From the NCBI GenBank assembly GCA_045837725.1, contig JBEWZL010000048.1, positions 124,001 to 188,000 on the forward strand: 64,000 nucleotides of DNA. Reading direction: 5' to 3'. The notes under the pieces were generated by a model, which ran no database searches, had not been told where the DNA came from, and was given only the letters and a program-made list of their open reading frames with translations. Positions 16,889 through 61,740 of this stretch are shown here, piece by piece. How positions within the stretch are numbered: position 1 is the stretch's first letter; each line of letters opens with the position of its first letter. The stretch comes from Vermamoeba vermiformis. Taxonomy: Eukaryota. The position numbers were made by a program, and so were the translations under genes.

Positions 16889-19800
16889 ATGGCTACTCCT
16901 ATTTCTGCTGTTGTAGGCGAAAAGGATCTGCGCATCCGAATTGAAGAAGCAGTTCTTAAAGCCTCAAAAAATAAGGCAGTCCCTCCTAAACACAAGCACG
17001 AACGAAATATCCTTTTAAACACCATAATTAGTGTATTTGAATCGAATCCGAAGAAACAATAATTCGGAAATAATCAAAAAGATTTTCTAATTTATGTAAC
17101 CCTTAACTCTTCACACATATTATTATAGAATCATGGAACGAACGAGGAGCTACCCTTATTTATTCAGAATTATTCAAAAGACCTTTGGGCCAGAAAGATA
17201 TCGTGGCTTACAAAGTACTCATCGTTATTCACAAATTATTGCGTGAAGGACACCCTCAAGTAAGTATAATATGACATTAATTAATGGTGAATTATTAAAT
17301 CATTTCTCTTCCGAAAATGAAAATTTTTCCGGATGCTTTTCCAGATCTCAGTAACTCCTTTTCAGCCCCTTACAATATCGCTAATATGCTATTGATAGGT
17401 TATTATCGACTCGCACTTGCGCATGTCCTTTTTTGAGCAATTGAGATTGAACTACAGACGTCTGCCGACCGGTAAATATTAAAAATTATTAAAAATCACT
17501 TAATTAGCTTAAATTCGTACAAATAAGCTCCTAATTAATTTTAATACTCGACTATAAGCATTACAATATTTACGGAGATTAAAATCGAAACATTTCAATA
17601 GAAGGAAATCTCTTGATTTCTACGCTCTATTAGCCGCTAATCATGTGTTATATTAATAGAATACGGCCGATTGATTGCCAATTATGTTACATTCTTGATC
17701 GACAAAATCAATTTCCATCACTTGCACCCCGAAGTGGATGGCAGCATCTCGCTCGAAAAATTCATGCAAACAAGACACGAAACTTTGAACGTGGAAAAGG
17801 GGTATGTAAAATTATATTCTAATTATAATTTCCCTATTCCTATATTTTCGCCGCTGTCACACGAATTTTTCATGCGAGCTTTCGATTGTCTTGCCGTATT
17901 GAAGCCCCTTTGGATTTAATTAATCATTACCTCAATTATACAAATTATTTCTGTCATTTAGCTGATTATTTCTCCTAGTATGACTTTGGCGACCCATTTG
18001 TTGGATCTTCAAAAATCAGTGCTCGACTTCCAAAAGACGGTATTCCAAGAGCCCGCGCTCAGTGATTGCAAAGCAGCCGCATTTATTCCGCTCGTTATCG
18101 AGTCATACGCCATTTACACTTTGACTGTCTGGCTTTTGAAACGCATTGCTGAACGTATGTGTCATAACAAGAAATTTCATCGAACAAACTTTTAATCTTA
18201 TTTTTATATTTATTTAGGCACGACCGATATGTCTTTATTCTCATTTTTGACTGAACGATTCTACCAACAATATCCTGAGATCAGAAAGTTCTACATTGAC
18301 TGCAGCAATATCAAGTACGTCATCAGCATCATTGCCGTGCCCAGTTTGCCCGCTGAACCACCACAATTCGAGCCTGGCGACAACATTCCTATTGCCAAGC
18401 CCAAGAAGAAGCGACAGCCCAAGCCTGAGCCCGAGCCTGAGCCTTCATACGAATTGGACTTGCCCGAACAACCTGAGCCCGAGTTCAATCCTCGTGCTAC
18501 TTTATCGCCCAATGATCTCAACGCGTTGTTCCAAGCCATTCAACCTGTTCAACCTATCGTGCAGACCCCTCCTCAACAAGATTGGTTCGCTTCGATGTTG
18601 CCGCCCACACCTGTCGTGCCCGTCGAACCACCCAAGACCGAGATCCGCACTGTCGTCAAGACTGAAATCCCCGAAGAAATTTTGAAGAAGATTGAGGAGC
18701 TCGAAGCTCGCATTCGTGCCTTGGAAGCTGAGAACTCTGGCTTGAAGGGCTTGCTCGAACAATTGAAGAAAGAAAAGGCTGTCTTGTTGAAACAAAACGC
18801 CAACTACAAACAACAGTTGGAAGACGCTGAACAACGATTCGAAGATGAAAAGTTGCGTTTGTTCATGGACCAAATTCAACAAGCCTCTGATATGTTCCGC
18901 AAAGCTCAAATCAACTTTGATGACCCCAACGACTCTGGCAACCAGTCTGCCAATCCTATGGACGTCTTGACTGCCGCCGAAGAAATGCGTCAAGCTTATC
19001 AAAACTTGTTGGACGCTCTAAACAACGGTGGTGACGTTATTGGTGCCACTCGTCTCTTAGCTGAAGCTGCCTCGCGCTTGTTGGCCAACGGCAAGGGCTA
19101 CGCTCAATTCATTCAAGACCCCAACTTGCGCATGCGCTTGCTCGATGCCGTCAGATCTTGCGGTGACGCCATTGCTCGTATGTTGGAGAACGTCAAGAAG
19201 TTGCAAGGACAAAAGCCCGATGACGCTCAAGCTGAGTACTTGAACCGTCAATTGGGCAGATTGGATGGTCACTTGGGCAACGTTAGATCTGCTGTCGATG
19301 AGGCCTCCAGCGAGAACAACTTGGACACTGGCATTGATCTTGAAGACTTGGCTGAGCGTGAGTTGATGAATGCCGCTAAGATGATTGCCGATGCTGCTTC
19401 TGCCCTCGAAGCCAGATCGCGCGAACGATCGAAGGTCCCCGAGAGCGAAATGACTCTCGCTGACTCCATTATGGGTGCTGCCATGGGCATTACTTCAGCC
19501 GTTCAAGCCTTGCTCCAAGCTGCCACTGAAGCGCAACAAGAACGTGTGCGCAAGGGTCGCAGCTCCGATCCCAATGCCGCCAAGTACCACCGTGACCCCA
19601 TGTGGGTTGAAGGTTTGATCAGCGCTGCTCGTGCTGTCGCTGAAGCCACTCGCCAATTGGTCCACTGCGCCAACGAGGCCTCTGAAGGTCGTTTGGAAGA
19701 AGCCGCCCTGATTGCTGCTGCTCGTGCTGTCACTGCCGCCACTCAACAACTGGTCGCTGCCACTCGCTCCAAGTCCGATCCCTTCAGCGAGACTCAAGGC

Positions 19801-20868
19801 AAGCTTGACCGTGCTGCCAAAGCCATCACCAATGCCACTCAAGCCCTTGTCAATGCTGCCAAGAGATCAAAGGAGGACGAAGAAGCCGCTTTGTTAGCCA
19901 AGTACGAGAACTTCCAAGGCAAATTCCAAGAGGAGTTCGAGCAAACCACAAAGATCATTGCCATGGAGAAACAACTCGAAACGGAACGACGTGTCTTGGC
20001 CACTATGCGCAAGGGTCGTTACGCTGACTCGAGCACCCCTGCTCCCAAGGGCCCTGCTCCTGAGATTGTGAACAAGGCTAACACCAATGCTAAGCCTCAA
20101 GCTCAAGGCACCATTGATCAGTCTCCTCAATTCCAAGGTGTTGGTTCAAGTAAGTCAAAACAAACTCGTGTATTTACTGCGTGTCAGACTAACCTGTGCG
20201 TATCAATAGAATCTAGCGCAGTTCCTGCTTATCAACGCAAGATGGAAGAGTCACTTGGCCGCGGTGCTCCTTCAGGTGGAATGCCCAAGGCTCAAGGTGG
20301 TGCCCCTAAGGCTGCTCCTGCCAAGCAAGGTCAACAACAACAGCCTCAAGCTGGTGGTTTGAAACGCGCTGATTCGAACATGCCTCCTCGCCAAGCTCCC
20401 CCTCAAACCGCTCAGTACACCGTCCAAACCACTGTTGCTGCCCCTAAGCAGCCTGCTCCTGCCGCCAATGCTAACCAACAAGGATTTTTGCCCAAGGAGA
20501 AGCAGATGGAGAAGTTTTTGGCTAGCAACGAAAACAACACCTTCAATGCTATTAAGGCTCAAGAACGATCAATGAGCTCCAATCCTCGCGAAGAACCTCA
20601 ACAATTCACTCCTCCTCCTTCTTTGGCACAAATCCGAGAACAACAGGAAAGACAGCAAGAGATCCGAAAGATTGATCAGTTCTTGTTCGGTGATCAAGGC
20701 CAAATTGTTCAACAATACCCTCCTCAACAACAAGGTGGTGTTGCTTATTCTCAGCAGCCTCCTCAACAATACCCTCCTCAACAGCAAGGTGGTGTTAATT
20801 ATTCTCAACAACCTCCTCAACAACCTCAACCCCAACCCGCTCGTAACCCTTACAACCCATTTGCCTAA
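16889..20868 (+). CDS. HIP1: Sla2/HIP1-family endocytic adaptor (ANTH, coiled coil, I/LWEQ talin-like domain, C-terminal NPF)
   Basis: PKHKHER-NIIIESW, KVLIVIHKLLREGHP (ANTH); WVEGLISAARAVA (I/LWEQ); ends YNPFA*. Contains a 60-nt in-frame intron candidate at 20150..20209. Confidence 0.9.
17007..17116 (+). other. U12-type AT-AC intron in Sla2/HIP1
   Basis: 5' end ATATCCTTT, branch CCCTTAAC at 17100..17107, 3' end AC. Removal restores KHKHER-N-IIIESW in frame. Confidence 0.9.
20710..20820 (+). repeat. Coding tandem duplication (about 54 bp x2; QQYPPQQQGGVxYSQQPP)
   Basis: Two near-identical copies visible in DNA and protein. Confidence 0.8.
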
Positions 20869-21309: not shown

Positions 21310-24300
21310 ATGAGCTCGCCAGACCTCAACAACTCGACTGATTCACCGACAGAGTCGAATGTAGCTCGTGCTCGAAAGCGTATGTTAATAGAAATGCAGC
21401 TTGAATATTCAGTGTAACTTCGTTGTCCCCGCAAGATCCTAAATACCGTTTCAAATTATAATTAATTATTCATACGAAATTTTAAATCTCTAATAATAAT
21501 GCAAGCTCGTATTTATTTTAATTGATTATTGTGGCTCTGCGGATTAACGTTCCCCTTTCTTTTTAGTCAAGCTCCGCCAATCGACACCCAATTTACTATT
21601 GCAAGGCACGCTGTAAGTTTTTTGTATTATCATACCATTTTATATTAAATTGCTCCATTGAATTATTTCGGTTCACATCTACGGGAGATCCAATTAAACC
21701 GAGTTAGGAGAAATTAGCTAATATTTGTAGTGCTGGAAGCCCTAAAACTCCTCGCAAAGGAAGCGATTTAGAAGAAGCAAGACCTAAATTGGATGAGGTG
21801 CGTATTGAAATTGAATTTGTTCACCTCCGCAAATCAATAAGATTTATTATCCGAAATTAGAATTATTTGCAAGTATTTACGCAAATCTATTTATTTCAAC
21901 CATTACGATATTATTCAAGCGGTTTTGTGTACGCAAAGGTCCTGACGAATCAGTCCGGTTAAGTGACGTCATCTATTTATAGGACTTGGTCGGTCTATTT
22001 AAGGAAGTAGTGCGTCAATTAGGCATCTCGCAAGAAGATCAAAACAAACTCACTTTGCTCGTCGATACTTTCGCGCCAACAGAAAATATTTCGAATGCTA
22101 AAAAACAGAATATTTTGGTATGAGAAATAATTATTAGCTTAATACTAATTGAACAAATACGCCTTTCCATCTTAATTTTTTTTAATAATTGTTCCTTTAT
22201 TTTTAATAGTGATCTGAAGATTTTGTATTTAATTCAATATTATATTAATAGCGCTCTGTTCGATCATATTGTCAAAATACCTTGGATAAGACAAAGAACA
22301 GCAAGTCAGTTATCTGCATTCAGAGCTACATTCGAGGCTGGAACGAAATCAAAAGTTTGCAACGATTACGTAAGTGTGGATCCTCTACAAACATTTTCCT
22401 AATTTAGAAAAACGCTCTATTGTGAGTCCACTTCGCAATTGTTGCGGTTTTCAGGACAAGAAACAAATCACATAACACCAGCACATTGCAATTTTACGAT
22501 ATTTATTTTCGAAACATTTACTCTAATCACTAATCTACTAATGCAGGCAAATTATATTCAACTGTTTCATGGCCTGATCGTAACGCTGAATTGCGAGATT
22601 TGTTCACTAAAGAGAAAGAATATGTGCACGTGTTGGAAAAGATCGTCAACGTACGTCACGGACACAATTATAACTCACTACGTATATTAATACTACGCGT
22701 CTATTATAGGACTACTTGATTCCGTTACGTGAAGAGAAGATTTTGAAAGTTGAACATATTCAATCTATTTTTTCGAACGTGGAGACATTGTTATTCGTGC
22801 ACAAGTATGACTCCTATATAAGCGCTATATATACGGCCAATTAACATTCTTCAATTAAAGGGAGTTCTTTAAGAAGATAATGGACTTAAGATTGAACTGG
22901 CCTCACATCACTGGTGTCGGATCTGCTTTTATTAGAACTGTAAGTCAGTTAACATAACATCAATAGACTATACAATATTGAACGTTGACTATAACTGCCT
23001 ATCTCAATAATCTACGGTTGATGTAATATGCAAAACATAAATACTAACAATGGTCTTAGGCCGCAAGCTTGTCGTGCTACTCAAACTACGTAGAAAACAT
23101 TTCACACGCCACACTTACCTTCCAAAAATTGTCCGAGGAAAACGACCGATTTAGAGCCTTCTTGGAAAAGAGAGCAGCCTCGGACAAGTCAGGCATGCCC
23201 TTGAGCGCACTGTTGTTCTATCCCTTGAACAGAATCTCACAGTACAAGATCGGTCTCGAAGTAAGCCCCACGGATCCAACATCTTTGTCGTGCTTGATAA
23301 TTAATGCCTCTTTTTCTCGCGTAGAATTTGCTGCAAAAAACACCTCGCAAACACTCGGACTACAATCAACTGGCACGTGCTTGTGACATGATGCAGAACG
23401 CGTACACATACATTGAAAAGTCGATGGCCTTGTCTAAAAACAGAGCTGCTATTCTTGAAGTTCAACGACGTTTGGGCATGGAGGTAACGAGGTGTTTCCA
23501 AATTAGGCAAAAAATTTATTGCACACGGATCCCATAATATTTTTAATACGAGTTCAATTGTTCTGATATCAAACGTTACTTTTAGAGCAATGAGTTAGTG
23601 TTACCTGGTCGCGAGTACATCTTCGAGAATCAAGTGCAGATCTTGAAAAAAGGCAAGAAACATCCTCGACTCGCTATCCTTGTAAGTACTTCCTGTTCTC
23701 CTTTAATATTATAATACTCAAATTACTATGATGAAACTCAAAAAATGCGTTGTTCTATTTCGGAACTAATTATGAATGAAAAATGACCTGTCTGATCCTT
23801 GTTCAAAAATAACTTCCATACACTAGTCCTCGCTCTAGTACTAATGACTTGCTGATTAGTTCAATGACATGCTATTGCTCGCCAAGTCGTCAGAGAAAGC
23901 TACGGACAACATCAAATACAAAGCCATCATTTATTTTACTTCGCAAGACGAAGTGCACGCGGAGACCGATAAAGACGGTACGTTTTATTTTCTTTTTAAC
24001 CGTTATATCCTTACCCTTTCCTAATTAGGCAAGTTCCCGCTTCGCTTGGACTCGTACAGAAACAAAGACGAAGAAGAGAATGAAAACGAGAACCCAAAGG
24101 AAAAAGAGAAGGAGAGCAAGACTAAAGAGAACTTGGGTAAGTAGCTGCGACTTAGTTAAAGGTAGATGAGTAGATTACTAAATAAGGCAATCTCTTTGGT
24201 GTAGTTTCGTACCGTCTCGTGTTCAGCACCGAAAAGGAACGCAAAGACTGGTTGGAATTGATCAACAAACAGCTCAACGGTGTCAAGATCAAGAGCACAA

Positions 24301-31305: not shown

Positions 31306-32928
31306 ATGCTCTCCCGAAGTGTAATTCGTACTTGTTTCACTGCTTCCAAGCAACCTGCTCAGGTAAGCTCTAAAGAATGCAACGGCACATCGGCTTGGCT
31401 GTTGAAGTTCTGCTCTATTCTCAAAGAGGGCCGTATTAATAATATCTTACTATTTAATATCAGATCGCACGAAGCTTCTCTTTATTGGCACGTGCAGCCT
31501 CAACCAAGAGAACCACTCAAAACTCAGCAGTAAAATCCCAAAAGAGCACTTTCACTTTGAACTGGACGGCGAAAAAATCACCTACTCAATTATATTTTGG
31601 TTCATTTATTCAAAAGAACAATTATACAACAGCCGGTGGTGAGTTTGAATTTTTAATATTTAATTTTCAAAAATATCTCCTGCTTACGATTTCTTTCGTT
31701 ATTCTTGTGTGATGCATTCATAGGGCTCTTCATCAAATTTTGCAAGATATTTACGGGAGTAGTCAGCAGTAAAATTAATAATTGACCGTTGTGGCCTTAA
31801 TCCAGAATTCCACTTGGCTTTATAATTCTTTCAAACCAATACTCGTAAAAATAACAAACGATTTAATGGTATATTTATTGATGCAATATTCGCGCAGGTG
31901 CTGCCGCTCAAAAGTTGGATGTTGTCGTTGAAGGCGAGACTTACAAACTAATAGTCAAATTGCCCTCATCAACTGAGTCCTCCGTCTTCGTGCTTAAGCC
32001 CATGGAGACTGTTCGCGATCTCATTAATGACATTCGAGAGGAGGACCCTAAGGCCAACACAATTGTTTTCCACTACACCGATGGCCTCAGGTACGACACA
32101 TTTCTGGCCGTTTGCGTATCAAATGTATAATAACCAATGCTATAACTAGAGTCTCACACTCGACTACTATCGACGACTTGCTTAAATCAGAGTTCCATTT
32201 GACTATTGAAGGCACCAAGTACCACGTAGTTCCTCCCAAGGAAAAGAGTACGTACAACTGAGACTCACCACGCACGTGCGTCCACAGGCAAATTTACGGT
32301 GCAACTTTATTGCCGTAAAATTGTTCAAAGGGCGCTATATTCCTTCACCTTCATACGATGGAGAACAACAAGCTGACTATTTTGTTCTAGTCCTTGACAG
32401 CATCAACGAGAATGTGCTCAGTGTGATGGATTTGCGCAGTCTGATGCACAAGGCTTACTACCACAGAATCTTGCTCCGCTTAGAGTCGGATAAACGACAC
32501 CACATGCCCTACAGGTAAGCATCCTTGCTTTCGAACGAACCAGGCCTTGTTTTTGCGCGGCGACGGGTCAATAACGGCCGTTTAGCTCAGTTGGTTAGAG
32601 CATCGTGCTAATAACGCGAGGGTCCCAGGTTCGATCCCTGGAATGGCCAGTTTTTTTTTACATTTTTTACATTTTTTACATTTGGTTCGGGTGGCAGCGC
32701 TGCAGTACCTTCGATTGATTATTCGCACCAACTAAGCTGTCTGCTTTGACGCTATGTGGCGCAATTTTCAAATTTTGGGCGCTTCATTTCACGGCTGTGA
32801 AGGGATGAGCTCGAGAGCAGTAACTTTACCCATGTTGTTTCTGCTCGTTTGTTTTATTCTGCGCTTGTCTTGCCAAGTGCTTCGAGTTGGTTCCAAAAAC
32901 TCGGACAAGAAAAGCGAAGTGGCGCAGT

Positions 32929-32959
<31 letters not shown>

Positions 32960-33979
32960 CCAGGATCGAAACCTGGCTTCGCTAATCATTTTTTTGATTC
33001 TTGAAAATCAAACAACGAGCAATATGATGGTACTTCCATGACTATGAATTACTCATGATTCAAATTATACCGTTTGAGACTGATTGCTCAATTTAATTTT
33101 TTTGGTCAGGCCTGATCCAGGGGTCAACGTAACCTGATACTGATCCTTTTTTTTAGTGAGTACTTGGAATGGTGCCGTGAGTACGGCTTGAGCGACGAAG
33201 AATCACTCAACTTGGCGCACCACTTGCACGAGGTTGGATTGATCTTGCACTTCGCTGGCAACCCCGAGCTCAAGGACTACATCTTCTTGAACCCTCAATT
33301 GGTCGCCAACAGCATCACCAAGGCCTTGCAATTGCGCTACATCAAGTACGTACCAAGTTCAGTTATAATAAGAGAACGCAACTAACGATTACGCTGCAGG
33401 AAGGGAGATGAACTTAAGATGGCTGAATTGGAAGCAATCAAGCAGGAATTGGCTCCTTTGCACGACCTTAAATGTACGTAATAGCTGAATTGGAAGGTCG
33501 TGTAATAATGGTACTGGCACTAATACTGTATAAATATAGTGACTTACGACGAACAAGCCGATAACTACGGCCGTCGAGTCTTGTTGTGGTCCGGCATCTA
33601 CTTGGCCGCGCAGTTCTCTTTGCTCGCTCGTCTCGTGTGGGTTGAGTTCAACTGGGACATTATGGAACCGATCACTTACTTCGTCACCTTGGGCACAATG
33701 ATCTGGGGTTACACTTTCTTCACCTTCACCAAGACCGACTACAGCTACCCTGCCTTCAAGGACCGCATTGCTCGTCGCAAGTTGCGCGCTATCTACTTGA
33801 AGAACGAGTTCAACTGGAAGAGATGGAACACTCTCTATCAACGCGCCAAGCAGCTCGAAGACGAATTGGCTTTGCCTGTTGCTGAGCGATTCACCACTCA
33901 AGATCCCAACAAGACTCGCTTGCCTAAAGTCCAAGCCTCAGCAATCTTGTCGACTCCTGATGCCGTTCAAACGAACTAA
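31306..33979 (+). CDS. MCU: Mitochondrial calcium uniporter pore subunit
   Basis: Mitochondrial-type presequence MLSRSVIRTCF; two TM helices flanking WDIMEPITY selectivity motif; long intron 32515..33156. Confidence 0.93.
32576..32649 (+). tRNA. tRNA-Ile(AAT), inside MCU intron
   Basis: GGCCGTT..AATGGCC-A acceptor stem, D arm TAGCTCAGTTGGTTAGAGC, anticodon arm TCGTG-CTAATAA-CGCGA, GTTCGATCC T arm, followed by a T-run terminator. Confidence 0.95.
32913..32984 (+). tRNA. Initiator tRNA-Met(CAT), inside MCU intron
   Basis: A1-U72 pair (AGCGAAG/CTTCGCT-A), three G-C pairs in anticodon stem (TTGGG-CCCATAA-CCCAA), GATCGAAA T-loop typical of eukaryotic iMet; T7 follows. Confidence 0.95.
33017..33089 (+). 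ncRNA. Candidate box C/D snoRNA, copy 1
   Basis: Terminal stem GAGCAA/TTGCTC, 3-nt bulge then C box ATGATGG (33024..33030), D' ATGA (33044..33047), C' ATGATT (33055..33060), D box CTGA (33080..33083); 73 nt. Confidence 0.72.
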
Positions 33980-34118
33980 ACCCTCGAATCACTTGTTTTA
34001 TTATTCTTACACATGCACTAATAAAGTAAATACGATTATATAGACGACAAGTTTGGGTTTATTTGTGGAGTACAAAAGTTCTTTTGATTATCAACTACAA
34101 TTTACATTTCATATGAAG

Positions 34119-35279
34119 TTAGTTCTTGGTAGACTCACGGCCGACGAGGGAGGTGTAGATGTCATCACCCAACATCTTCACACGCATGCTGGTGCCCATC
34201 AACTTGGACCAGTAAACAGCACGCCACATCCAGTAAGCACCGAGACCAGTGACGATGGCCTTTGATTCTGAACCTCGCTCAACAAATCCGTCTTCAGCAC
34301 CGACGTATTCAAAGCCACCAATGTGCTTGTATCTGAAGGGTGTTCGCTCTGTGGGGTCCTCGTAATTGCACTCAGATCTGTTGAATGCTTTGGCCAAGAA
34401 TGCTCCTTGTTGAGCAGCAACTAATGGGCATGGATTAATATTATTATTCATAATACAATAGCGCTGAGAAACATACCAGCAGCGGTCGAGGGCAAGCGAG
34501 TCAATCGAGCGTCGAACGATCTCAACAGACCAGCAAACTCTTCGCGGTCCAAAGTGCCGTCCTTGTTAGTATCAGCTTGCACGAACAATTCTTTCGAGTT
34601 GTTGGCGACTTCAAAGAGAGCTGGGAATTGACGAGCCAAGTTCTTTACCAACGCTTCGTATTCCTCAACATCGACGCGACCGTCACCGTTGACGTCAAGC
34701 TTTTTGAAGATTTCCTAGCACGTGGTGTGAGTACTGATTGCAATTGACAGCGCGAGTACTTACAACAGCCTTGTTGATCAATTTGCCCTGATCAATAGTG
34801 GCACAGTCACCCAATGCCCACACGTCCTTGGCACCATTGACGGCGAGTGAGTTGTCGGTGACGAGGGCGCGAGTGTTGTTCTGGCCCTTCAGCTTGGAGC
34901 GCAGCATGTTGATGAGTGGGTGAGGAGCACCGCCAGTGGACCACACGCACAAACCAAACGGTAACTTCACTGTCTCTTCGGTCTTTGTCTCGCGGTTGAA
35001 TCGCTTCACTGTCACGCTGTCCTTATCGACGGCAACAACGTGCTTCGACTTGACTACATTAACGCCCTTAGAATGGTGGTGCAAAGCCATGTCTGTGGAA
35101 ACAAAAGTCAAGGAAAACCAGATCTGGATCAGATCAAAAAAAATAAATCGAGCAATCAGTCTCAAACGGTATAATTTGAATCATGAGTAATTCATAGTCA
35201 TGGAAGTACCATCATATTGCTCGTTGTTTGATTTTCAAGAATCAAAAAAATGATTAGCGAAGCCAGGTTTCGATCCTGG

Positions 35280-35310
<31 letters not shown>

Positions 35311-36794
35311 ACTGCGCCACTTCGCTTTTCTTGTCCGAGTTTTTGGAACCAACTCGAAGCACTTGGCAAGACAAGCGCGAAAAGTTTGAATAAAGGATAC
35401 ATTCACTAATTGAACGATCGTAGAAGTTGTTGATGTGCTCCTTGGTCGAGACTAAGGTAACATTAGCAGTTTCAGCCAATGAAGGGAATTGTGGTTTGAG
35501 ATCTTGGTCGATGAATTCTGTTCGTGCACTGAGATTAGTAGTCGGCTCTAACATGTCGTCGAAAATGTGCATACCATGCAGGTTATGGGCAATTTCATAG
35601 GCGACAGGACTGCCTCCAACAATGACAAAGTTCAACAGCTTCTTCTTTTCCTATTGTTTAATACTTGCGTGTCAATAACAAATCCTTGGCTGTCATATTC
35701 TCCTCTTATAATCAGCTTACATCGTCAGATACGTTAGGCAGAGTGGCCTTCTCAAAAGCATCAATAACTTTCTTCTTAATGTTCTTCGCGTCTAATCATA
35801 TGATCGTTAATGAGCGTTATGCGGGCAATAATCTCTGAGCACGTACCTTGAAGGTCGCGCAAAAACAAAGTGTTCTTTTCAACGTCTTTCAGTCCTAAGG
35901 TGTTTGGTACGGAACCAACAGCAATGACGAGCTTGTCGTAATTGACAGTGAAGTCCTTGCCCTCAGCAGCTGTATAAATACGTAAATGCTAATGCCGAAT
36001 ATAACGATGCGCGATATTTCGTACTTTTGCATGTAACAGTCTTCTTGTTGATATCAATGTCAGATGCGCTGGCTTCATAGTAGTTCAAAACTTTGTTATT
36101 TCGCTTAGCAAAAGTGCGAATAGGCTCAGTAACGCTAAAATAAAATATAAATCAATATTATAAAATTTACCAAGATATTTTTGCCCTTGAAACCGGATTC
36201 GTTCTTTAAGTGATTTAAAAATTAAAACGTACCTTTCAGTAGTTGTGGATCCAACAGTGACATCGGGGAGACCAGGAGTGAATAGGAAATAATTTCTAGG
36301 AGAGACAACGGTCACATCAAACATGTAAGTGTTGATATTTCCAGCCATCGACAAGGCACCCCAGCCAGAGCCTAAAATTACGAGTTTTTGTTTGTTTGAT
36401 CCTGCATCTTTTTGTTTCAAACTGCTCTCTAAGGCCAAGCAAGTGTTAATAGCGGTATGGAAATCCAGATTGAAAAAACTTACCGTGCACATATTCGACT
36501 CCTTTATACACCAAAAAGCTACCACCAAATATCGACACAACTACAGATGCCTTTTCCAGATTGGACCACTTCTTGGCAGTGCGGCTGTTATTGAAAATTA
36601 AAAATTTAATTATTTATTACCTAATTATCTAAATAATGAATGATCAATACGAATGTGTATTGCAATATTATGTAATATTTTGTTGCCAATCAATAATCAT
36701 TTTTGCTGCATGTGAAGTATTACCCTGCGTTGGTGCGAGATTGCAGTCTCGTAGCAGTTCGCGAGCTAAGGAGCAATTTGCTGATTCTAAACAT
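34119..36794 (-). CDS. Type II (alternative) NADH dehydrogenase with EF-hands (NDB-like)
   Basis: Presequence MFRISKLLLSSRTATR, LVILGSGWG, VVSPRNYFLFTP, YDKLVIAVG, FVIVGG, WALGDCAT, EF-hands (ADVNGDGRVDVEEY, ADTNKDGTLDREEF), PFRYKHIG. Confidence 0.9.
35150..35222 (-). ncRNA. Candidate box C/D snoRNA, copy 2
   Basis: Identical to 33017..33089; the stem extends by one more C-G pair here. Confidence 0.72.
35255..35326 (-). tRNA. Initiator tRNA-Met(CAT), inside NADH dehydrogenase U12 intron
   Basis: Identical to 32913..32984. Confidence 0.95.
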
Positions 36795-59021: not shown

Positions 59022-61740
59022 CATGTTGCACCATAAGGATTTATATGCTTACAAAAGACCAAAAGGTACGCCACGCGGCCAATTAAATATGCCAGATCTG
59101 ATTCTATTTTATTCAATTATTCTTCTTATATTCGATTACAAATGATAATTAAAGTATTATTAATCACTATGATGTTATTAGGTGTGCATAAAGTTTTCGG
59201 CTTGGATTTGGAAATTCTTTGCAAAGCAGAACGACGCCACTGCCCAAAACTTATTATATGTATCATAGATTATCTAGAGCAAAAGTGTAAGTCGAAAATC
59301 GGAATTATTTGTTTAATTGAAATTGAATTGGATCGTTCAACAAAATCCGAACGAAATAACGAATTTCGTGTTTAAATAAGAGTTTAGCAATAAGAATCGG
59401 CACAACTTCGCATAATTAATTGTCCGTTATGCTCTCGTACACTTATCGAGCGAGGTTAATATCAATTTCAGCGAGATTTAATATAAATTTGTTGAAGGTC
59501 TCGATGAGGAACGCCTCTTGGCTCAACCTGGAAATGTGGCCCAACTAAAGGATGCCGTGGCCAAAATTAACAACGGTAAGTTGTCTGGAGGCAATAGGGG
59601 CGATATGTCGTTTCGTTAAATTAACGCACGGAATTTCGGAATCTAACGAACGAACGGGCAATGACCCACTCCTCTATCCAAATCTAACGAATTATAATAA
59701 AGGCAATCGTATCAAGTTTGAAGATTTAGGAGCGTACACAACGGGAGATCTGTTGAAGAGATTCTTGTCCGAACTGCCCGTGCCTCTCATCCCGAAAGAA
59801 ACATTCAAGCGCTTGACTGAAATCAAATCTGACGATCCAAAGCGCGAAGAAGAAACTATTGCAGTACTGCAGACATTGACTCATATTCAAGCTGCGACGT
59901 TGGAAGTCGTGTTGCAGATGTGCAAGTAAGCCTCCGAACTAAACAATGTGTCTCTAATTCTAACGTGACTTTGTAGACGAGTGACAATGCGCAGTGGCAC
60001 CAACAAGATGGACTGCAACAAATTGGGGCTAGTCATGGTTCCAGCACTGATGCCCTATGTCACTGACGTTGAAGCACAATCACTGACGCAGAGTCGTGAT
60101 GCAGTGCTCAAGGGCAATGAACTGTTCGAATATCTCGTGCCTGAAGTGGAGAGTCTGTTCAAGTGGGTACGTAGATTTATCGTCGGTCGTCATTGGCTGT
60201 CGTACTTACATGTATGTCAGAACACTCACCACCAGAAGCGATTGAGCACCAAGATCAACAAATTGAAGCACTTCAATAGACTCGCCGCTGCCCCTAATAC
60301 GCCCAAGCGAGGAGTGCGCATCTTGGCGCTGGACGGTGGAGGCATGCGTGGTCTGTCAGAACTCACCATTCTCTCGCACATTGCAAAGAAGTTGTACGGC
60401 GATAATGGACCTGAAAGCACTAAGGTAACGCATTTTACCTTGAAGAATTGACTCCGTGGATCCGAGACGGTGATCTGGTGCAGTATTGTTCGTACGGCAA
60501 GTAGTGACCCGAACACGCAGTTGAAAAGCGTCTCGGGCACGACCACACTAACAAGAATGCACCGCTTCCCGTCCGATCAGCGAAGTTAAGCTTGTTCAGG
60601 CCTTCTTAGTACTGGGGTAGGAGACTACCTGGGAATCGGAGGTGTTGTGCTCTTCTCTTTTTTGCTTTTGCTCCTCTTACCTGCAGTCTGTGCTGACTCG
60701 CTCTCTTTTTAGAAACTTGTCGCTTCATTCGACTTGATTTGCGGCACTTCTACCGGCAGTATCGTGGCCATGTCGCTGTTGAAGAACTCATTGAAGGACT
60801 GCGAAGACTTGTACTATAACTTGGGCTCACAAATCTTCTACAACTCGTATTTATACGCCACAGGTCGCTGGTGGCGATACTACCGCAGCGGCGATTACTA
60901 TGACGGCGAATCACTCTACAAGCTGTTCAGTGAAAACTTTGGCTCCGACATGATTGGCGAAATGTTCGACGCCAATGCCCCTCAAAAGGTAGCTAGTTCA
61001 TTGTGTAAACAATCATCGCACTTTAACTGACTTTATTTGCAGCTGTTTGTCACCGCGACAGATGCTACCAGTGACGTGTTCGATCCAGTGTTGTTCCGCT
61101 CTTACGAGAACAAGAACAGTCACGTGACTGGACACTCTAAAATCTCCGCACCACAAGCACTTCGCGCTAGTTGTGCAGCCCCTACTTACTTCTCTCCGTT
61201 GGTACTCGACGAACACAATTACATGGACGGTGGATTCATCTACAACAATCCCACTGAACTCGCCATCTTTGAGGCTCATGCTTTGTGGCCCGATCGTCCT
61301 ATTGAGTGGTAAGTCTATAATCAGTGGTATTCATATTCATAAGGCTAACAACATGTAGTATTGTTTCGGTTGGTACTGGCTTGCCTAAACCCAACCCTGG
61401 CTCCGAGAACGTGCTGTCACTGCTTGGCGAGATCATCGATATCTGTACCAACAGCGATGCTATTCACAAGCGAGTCTTGGCGTGGTTGGACTTCTTGCAG
61501 ATCAAGCCCAGTTATTTCCGCTTCGATGCCAATCCACCCATTGGCTCTCTCAGACTTGACACGGGTGACAAGCCAACACTCGAACAAATGTGCGCACAGA
61601 CCGAGGCCTATATGAACGAAGCTAAACAGACCTCTGAAGTTGAACGTCTGATGCAGATCTTGTCTGGTCAGCGAACTGGCTTCCTCACTGAGAACACTGT
61701 AAATAATACGAACAACACGAATGTGAATAATGCCAACTAA
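59022..61740 (+). CDS. RhoGAP-like domain + patatin-like phospholipase
   Basis: VFGLDL..CPKLIICIIDYLE, LLKRFLSELPVPLIP, NKMDCNKLGLV; patatin motifs LALDGGGMRG, GTSTG, ALRASCAAPTYF, DGG. Confidence 0.85.
60535..60653 (+). rRNA. 5S rRNA gene inside intron 60425..60712
   Basis: 119 nt; helix I GGGCACGAC/GTTGTGCTC, conserved CCCGTCCGATC..GAAGTTAAGC, TTAGTACT..GGAGAC..CCTGGGAA motifs; T-run terminator immediately downstream. Confidence 0.93.

Follow-up and report, generated by a model that had tools for sequence, protein, structure and literature searches.

A 308-nucleotide (nt) intron of an NADH:ubiquinone reductase (NDH-2) gene is probably a U12-type GT-AG intron that carries a passenger module. 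It was found in a 64,000-nt stretch of Vermamoeba vermiformis DNA (contig JBEWZL010000048.1, positions 124,001 to 188,000; hereafter the window). The module comprises an initiator transfer RNA (tRNA) gene, predicted to be autonomous, and a candidate small nucleolar RNA (snoRNA) that would be released from the intron. An inverted twin of the module lies in an intron of the MCU gene next to it. The host gene, the intron and its signals are:

34119..36794, minus strand: host gene, EF-hand external-type NADH:ubiquinone reductase (NDH-2), 11 exons, 577 amino acids (aa), from the gene model
35093..35400, minus strand: 308-nt intron, the eighth of 10 in NDH-2, U12-type GT-AG candidate, phase 1, from the sequence, the gene model and contig junctions
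35392..35400, minus strand: 5' splice site GTATCCTTT, from the sequence
35107..35117, minus strand: branch-point motif TTTTCCTTGAC, whose branch A (35108) precedes the last intron base by 15 nt

The intron started with GTATCCTTTATT and ended with TGGTTTTCCTTGACTTTTGTTTCCACAG, the terminal AG being at 35094..35093. The part of a published study available to us (10.1101/2020.10.12.336362) gives the U12 consensus as [G/A]TATCCTT at the 5' site and TTCCTT[G/A]AC at the branch site. The 5' site GTATCCTT matched this consensus at 8/8 positions, or 9/9 over GTATCCTTT. The branch motif TTCCTTGAC matched at all nine positions, with its A 15 nt from the 3' end. The base at −1 was T, which is over-represented at GT-AG U12 introns according to excerpts of PMC7367187. 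At +5 the intron had C. The other NDH-2 introns had G at this position in eight of nine cases and C in none, and the orthologous introns in two related metagenome contigs, L001 and L002, had G in 7/8 and again C in none.

In L002, whose NDH-2 protein shares about 80% of its residues with that of the window, the first 12 intron bases were identical to those here, with divergence beyond them.

Neither motif was significantly enriched across the window. RTATCCTT occurred six times (3.48 expected; at least six in 13/100 shuffles) and TCCTTRAY 11 times (8.52 expected; at least 11 in 24/100 shuffles). What is beyond chance is the conjunction of the two, both lying exactly at a splice junction used in transcripts. 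A pairing script returned 10 donor-like sites with a branch-like motif downstream. The coding context was read for those at 17007 and 35400, and for 16639 by eye; the last lies upstream of the start of a Sla2-like gene.

The junction was tested on contigs of two public runs, X1 and X2, from two studies, over the stretch 34100-36600. In both runs (2/2) position 35092 was joined to 35401 exactly, with no positional ambiguity (the count of 'both' was 0). All nine model introns of this stretch were missing from the X2 contigs at their model positions. The X1 contigs skipped 8/9 at the model positions, and the ninth (36135-36232) showed the model junction together with one shifted by a single base. 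The protein junction DRSISEY/M of the eighth intron was read through by the related proteins P0001 and P0039 as well as by the window model, P0039 reading DRSISEY/MSLH. Since every intron was absent precisely and P0039 crosses the junction, the simple reading is that the X1 and X2 contigs represent spliced RNA.

The shifted X1 junction (36133-36233, minus strand, for the intron 36232-36135) carries one extra letter. It could stem from a minor 3' splice site used as an alternative, from strain variation or from faulty assembly.

An earlier note on this DNA had proposed a minor-spliceosome intron with these ends, about three quarters of it occupied by a cassette of an initiator tRNA and a snoRNA candidate. 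Both U12-like signals were read at those ends and agreed with the consensus, and splicing from 35400 to 35093, the check suggested in the note, was exact in the contigs of both runs. The tRNA and the snoRNA candidate were also recovered, as described below.

A second intron with the same set of motifs was found elsewhere in the window:

17007..17116, plus strand: second U12-type intron, AT-AC, 110 nt, phase 1, in a Sla2/HIP1R-like gene; ATATCCTTTT ... CCCTTAAC, 10 nt to the terminal AC

It carried ATATCCTT and, 10 nt before the AC, CCTTAAC. Its removal is in frame and produces KHKHERN/IIIESWNERG, exactly as in the related protein P0003 (87% identical). P0003 has 1092 aa on a contig of 3433 nt, which therefore leaves no room for introns. 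Sections of PMC10639083 report minor introns in the Amoebozoa Physarum, Protostelium, Pelomyxa and Acanthamoeba. Because of the second, AT-AC intron, minor splicing is very probably present in this organism. The minor spliceosome, presumably with U11, U12, U4atac and U6atac, would then remove the NDH-2 intron 35093..35400.

The module inside the intron, its twin and the intron that houses the twin are:

35135..35378, minus strand: module copy B, 244 nt, consisting of leader, tRNA, T-run, spacer, snoRNA candidate and T-run, from sequence comparison
35255..35326, minus strand: initiator tRNA-Met(CAT) gene, sense with NDH-2 (ARAGORN; Rfam 60.9 bits)
35244..35250, minus strand: T7 run, terminator-like for RNA polymerase III (Pol III), starting 5 nt past the tRNA, from the sequence
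32861..33104, plus strand: module copy A, 244 nt, sense with the MCU gene; tRNA at 32913-32984, snoRNA candidate at 33016-33090
32515..33156, plus strand: U2-type intron of the MCU gene, 642 nt, GTAAGC...TTTTTTTTAG, hosting a tRNA-Ile(AAT) and module copy A
32576-32649, plus strand: the tRNA-Ile(AAT) in the MCU intron (ARAGORN)

The module takes up 244 of the 308 nt of the U12-type intron (79%), close to the share given in the earlier note. The remaining core of about 64 nt (22 nt on the 5' side and 42 nt on the 3' side) is of ordinary length here.

The residues read from the tRNA sequence were those of an initiator: a CAU anticodon, three G:C pairs at G29-31:C39-41, A54, A60, C3:G70 and A1:U72, the last pair being a signature of initiator tRNA-Met. 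The other signature residues are as described in parts of PMC3950347. All 72 positions were identical in the four copies compared (4/4). At the position of the T7 run, L001 and L002 each had T6 plus T9. With a T7 terminator of its own and internal promoter-like boxes, the tRNA is probably an autonomous Pol III gene. Pol III would transcribe it independently of the host.

Upstream of the tRNA, the leader can form a hairpin (CGAGTT...AACTCG, 35356-35336, minus strand). L002 has a counterpart at about 2868-2889 (CTGGTT...AACCAG) that differs from the window by two compensatory pairs, and the hairpin is not kept in L001.

Copies A and B form an inverted pair 2.3 kb apart and differ at 2/244 positions. 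The MCU gene was identified by Pfam (MCU, 8.3e-30), and the junction left by its intron, ...HHMPYS/EYLEW..., is read through by the related protein P0043. The neighbouring genes MCU and NDH-2 converge, their stop codons lying about 140 nt from each other, and each encodes a mitochondrial protein linked to Ca2+. The arrangement recurs in the related metagenome contigs: the module lies in the NDH-2 intron behind GTATCCTTTATT in L002, and in the MCU intron in L001. Within pairs, the snoRNA candidate was identical at 74/75 positions in the window and at 80/80 between L001 and L002. Because the copies within a pair are nearly or fully identical and have diverged between organisms, they fit an old duplication homogenised by gene conversion, which would probably keep the two copies of the module alike. 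A caveat is that L001 and L002 stem from separate records, possibly of different organisms.

An apparent COR-A domain on the MCU exon was considered as a fusion specific to this gene. This was rejected, as 20/21 MCU relatives carry a COR-A match.

Since the same module also resides in the U2-type MCU intron, it is not bound to the U12 intron, and its pairing with the latter looks incidental. That the module has a U2-type twin, and that the transcripts are fully spliced, speaks for tolerated rather than regulatory cargo.

The second RNA of the module is the snoRNA candidate, with the following parts:

35149..35223, minus strand: box C/D snoRNA candidate, 75 nt, from its boxes and terminal stem
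35215-35209, minus strand: C box AUGAUGG
35195-35192, minus strand: D' box AUGA
35184-35178, minus strand: C' box AUGAUUC
35159-35156, minus strand: D box CUGA
35136..35143, minus strand: T8 run just past the candidate, from the sequence

The box C/D consensus is RUGAUGA for box C and CUGA for box D, joined by a terminal stem. The candidate matched 6/7 positions in its C box and had a 6-bp terminal stem, GAGCAA/UUGCUC, that abuts the boxes. It is sense with the host, about 30 nt past the tRNA and about 40 nt upstream of the branch point. Because of this position and its sense orientation in both hosts, the snoRNA would most likely be freed from the excised intron, like the intron-encoded snoRNAs of other eukaryotes.

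Alternatively, the 75-nt element could be no snoRNA at all but conserved sequence flanking the tRNA, for instance a regulatory element or a small RNA of another class. Four observations agree with this and weigh against the snoRNA assignment. First, Rfam was run over the whole window at gathering and relaxed thresholds, and its matches were limited to a 5S ribosomal RNA (rRNA), three tRNAs and one sub-threshold C/D family elsewhere; for the candidate itself there was no family match with E up to 5 in 32400-35500, or in L001 and L002. Second, a target search against the 5S rRNA and the tRNAs of the window was without result, the best pairing being 10/14 including G:U. Third, only the 5' guide was conserved, and the sequence next to the D box was not. 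Fourth, the final base of the C box was G, where the consensus has A. On the other hand, the terminal stem, the C and D boxes and the internal C'/D'-like boxes were invariant in 4/4 copies. The loop between D' and C' varied in length, as expected for box C/D RNAs. The element was also better conserved between organisms (65/75 positions) than the spacer (17/28) and the leader (28/46). A mere tRNA flank is thus a doubtful reading, although it keeps some plausibility, and a box C/D snoRNA is the reading that we prefer.

For the intron itself, the alternative is removal of 35093..35400 by the U2-type spliceosome, or a 'hybrid' intron, with the U12-like motifs as relics or chance occurrences. Several results count against the U12 assignment. 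The branch motif was not kept in L001: the homologous sequence, TTCATTCAC, is degenerate (7/9), and its A precedes the last intron base by 13 nt. L001 also has a better match, ACCTTAAC, but there the branch A precedes the last intron base (the G of AG) by just 3 nt, which is too close by the known rules. TTGAC suits the U2 branch consensus and could equally serve as a U2-type branch site; one U2-type intron of NDH-2 contains the similar TATTGAC. Donors starting with GTAT, such as GTATGC and GTATGT, are frequent here. The conservation of the 5' site (13/16) was equalled by the U2-type intron I3 and carries little weight alone. Phase 1, found in 5/10 NDH-2 introns, does not discriminate U12 from U2 type. 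The relaxed Rfam scan of the 64-kb window detected no U11, U12, U4atac or U6atac. The contigs of X1 and X2 were labelled as RNA by guess only. From two raw RNA sequencing (RNA-seq) runs under the same species label, X21 and X22, 5 and 16 reads were aligned, none at the junction; these reads were mostly tRNA-like with unlike flanks.

Against removal by the major spliceosome stand the C at +5 and the CC at +5/+6, where 15/17 other introns examined have G at +5, and the complete match of the 5' site, with its 12 identical bases in L002. The AT-AC intron of this window, which has the same set of motifs, is removed as well, and the major spliceosome is not expected to handle such an intron. We therefore regard a U2-type or hybrid intron as unlikely. 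With high probability, 35093..35400 is a true U12-type intron.

The tRNA and the snoRNA candidate might also form a plant-like dicistronic Pol III unit, from which RNase Z would free the snoRNA, the intron being a landing site. The order of the two, a tRNA followed about 30 nt later by a C/D RNA, agrees with this, as does the T-run past the snoRNA candidate in 4/4 copies. Plant tRNA-snoRNA precedents are described in sections of PMC2566860. According to the same sections, the hallmark of a dicistronic Pol III gene is that no T-run lies between the two RNAs. In the module, by contrast, a terminator separates the tRNA from the snoRNA candidate: T7 here, and T6 plus T9 in the relatives. Moreover, both copies are sense with their hosts, as a snoRNA processed from an intron needs; this would occur by chance in one case of four, and it is kept in the relatives. 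A dicistronic unit is accordingly improbable, and we favour an autonomous tRNA gene with a snoRNA that would be released from the intron.

Another possibility is that the module is selected as sense-oriented intron cargo, maintained as an inverted, gene-converted pair in two convergent genes concerned with mitochondrial Ca2+ handling, both small RNAs deriving at least in part from the RNA polymerase II (Pol II) transcripts of the hosts, the snoRNA via the lariat and the tRNA via RNase P/Z. If so, the output of initiator tRNA and of a ribosome-modifying guide would be tied to the expression of MCU and NDH-2, with one arm gated by minor splicing. We consider this distinctly improbable.

The proposal of the earlier note that tRNA transcription or RNase P/Z cleavage competes with slow minor splicing, and so couples the supply of initiator tRNA to NDH-2, found no support beyond the sense orientation of the tRNA inside the pre-mRNA in both hosts and the related contigs, and it is very unlikely: the module is equally present in the U2-type MCU intron and has no tie to minor splicing, the assembled form was fully spliced mRNA in 2/2 contig runs, intronic tRNA genes are commonplace (44% of the tRNA genes of C. 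elegans, according to parts of PMC4999229), and slow U12 splicing is not universal, being absent in Physarum according to the available part of 10.1101/2020.10.12.336362.

All elements of the tolerated cargo and its host intron are of known kinds. With the canonical U12-type GT-AG introns as classified by intronIC and IAOD, those of Amoebozoa included, the NDH-2 intron shares the 5' site, the branch motif with A 15 nt from the end, T at −1, a phase other than 0, and its position as one such intron among many of U2 type in the gene. It differs in that four fifths of it is a tRNA and snoRNA module, and in the degenerate branch motif of a relative. The branch motif here is classical, unlike the TTTGA of Physarum given in the portion of 10.1101/2020.10.12.336362 at hand.

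With the intron-encoded box C/D snoRNAs of animals and fungi, the candidate shares the sense orientation, the number of one per intron, the terminal stem with C and D boxes, and a location about 40 nt upstream of the branch point. Hirose and Steitz reportedly found in 2001 that the optimum for an intronic snoRNA is roughly 50 nt from the branch point. The hosts are different: they encode mitochondrial membrane proteins here, not translation-related ones. Also different are the U12 type of one of the host introns and the tRNA gene immediately upstream.

The plant dicistronic tRNA-snoRNA genes (Kruszka et al. 2003, as cited in passages of PMC2566860) likewise have a C/D snoRNA within tens of bases of a tRNA, followed by a T-run. 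Here, by contrast, a strong T-run separates the two RNAs, the unit lies inside introns, and the tRNA is an initiator, not tRNA-Gly or elongator tRNA-Met. The intronic tRNA genes of C. elegans, as portrayed in parts of PMC4999229, share the location in an intron of a protein gene and the conservation of the host pairing between relatives. In the present case, however, the tRNA travels with a snoRNA in a duplicated, inverted module shared by two convergent genes.

Literature linking Vermamoeba vermiformis with U12 was not found in the library searched. The main text of a pan-eukaryotic survey (PMC10639083), as far as it was available, names no Vermamoeba, Echinamoeba or Tubulinea; its supplements may list them. 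On snoRNAs or tRNAs inside U12 introns, the search returned general reviews only and no dedicated report, which is not proof of absence. Transcript-supported U12-type introns, both GT-AG and AT-AC, may thus be new for the tubulinean amoeba lineage close to Vermamoeba, and the same may hold for a U12 intron that houses a snoRNA together with a Pol III gene. Such an intron is a natural test of whether the minor spliceosome tolerates bulky, structured cargo, and the U2-type MCU twin next to it would serve as an internal control. In practical terms the value is modest, since the elements are of ordinary kinds.

The identity of the host gene was supported by Pfam matches to Pyr_redox_2 and EF-hand on its exons, and a Protein Atlas search gave the same family. 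The source name of P0001, a 90% identical relative, is also that of an external-type, Ca2+-binding type-II NADH:ubiquinone reductase. The NDH-2 model aligned without gaps to P0001 (492/545 identical) and to P0039 (511/553, 92.4%), the latter a protein from a Trinity transcriptome of Vermamoeba vermiformis in EukProt. The window reads as eukaryotic DNA, with a G+C content of about 42% and numerous GT-AG introns, about 50-100 nt in length. Echinamoeba, Nolandella and Copromyxa were the named relatives of the protein of another gene in the window. Together these protein relatives point to a Vermamoeba-like amoeba of the Tubulinea.

Two public protein models coincide with open reading frames (ORFs) of the window. 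P0040, a fragment of 110 aa, is identical to the ORF at 34119-34450 and looks like an ORF call blind to introns. P0002, of 879 aa, is identical to the ORF at 18196-20868; for the Sla2/HIP1R-like gene it begins downstream of the AT-AC intron, lacks the N-terminal ANTH exons and looks intron-blind as well. The deposited annotation of this genome therefore probably misses most of the exon-intron structure, and both U12-type introns are probably unannotated.

The sub-threshold C/D match in the Rfam scan, at 23724-23798 on the plus strand, was to the fungal snoRNA family Afu_294 (26.2 bits, gathering 43, E = 0.58) and is a possible snoRNA. The 5S match, at 60535-60653 on the plus strand, is a dispersed 5S rRNA gene (104.7 bits).

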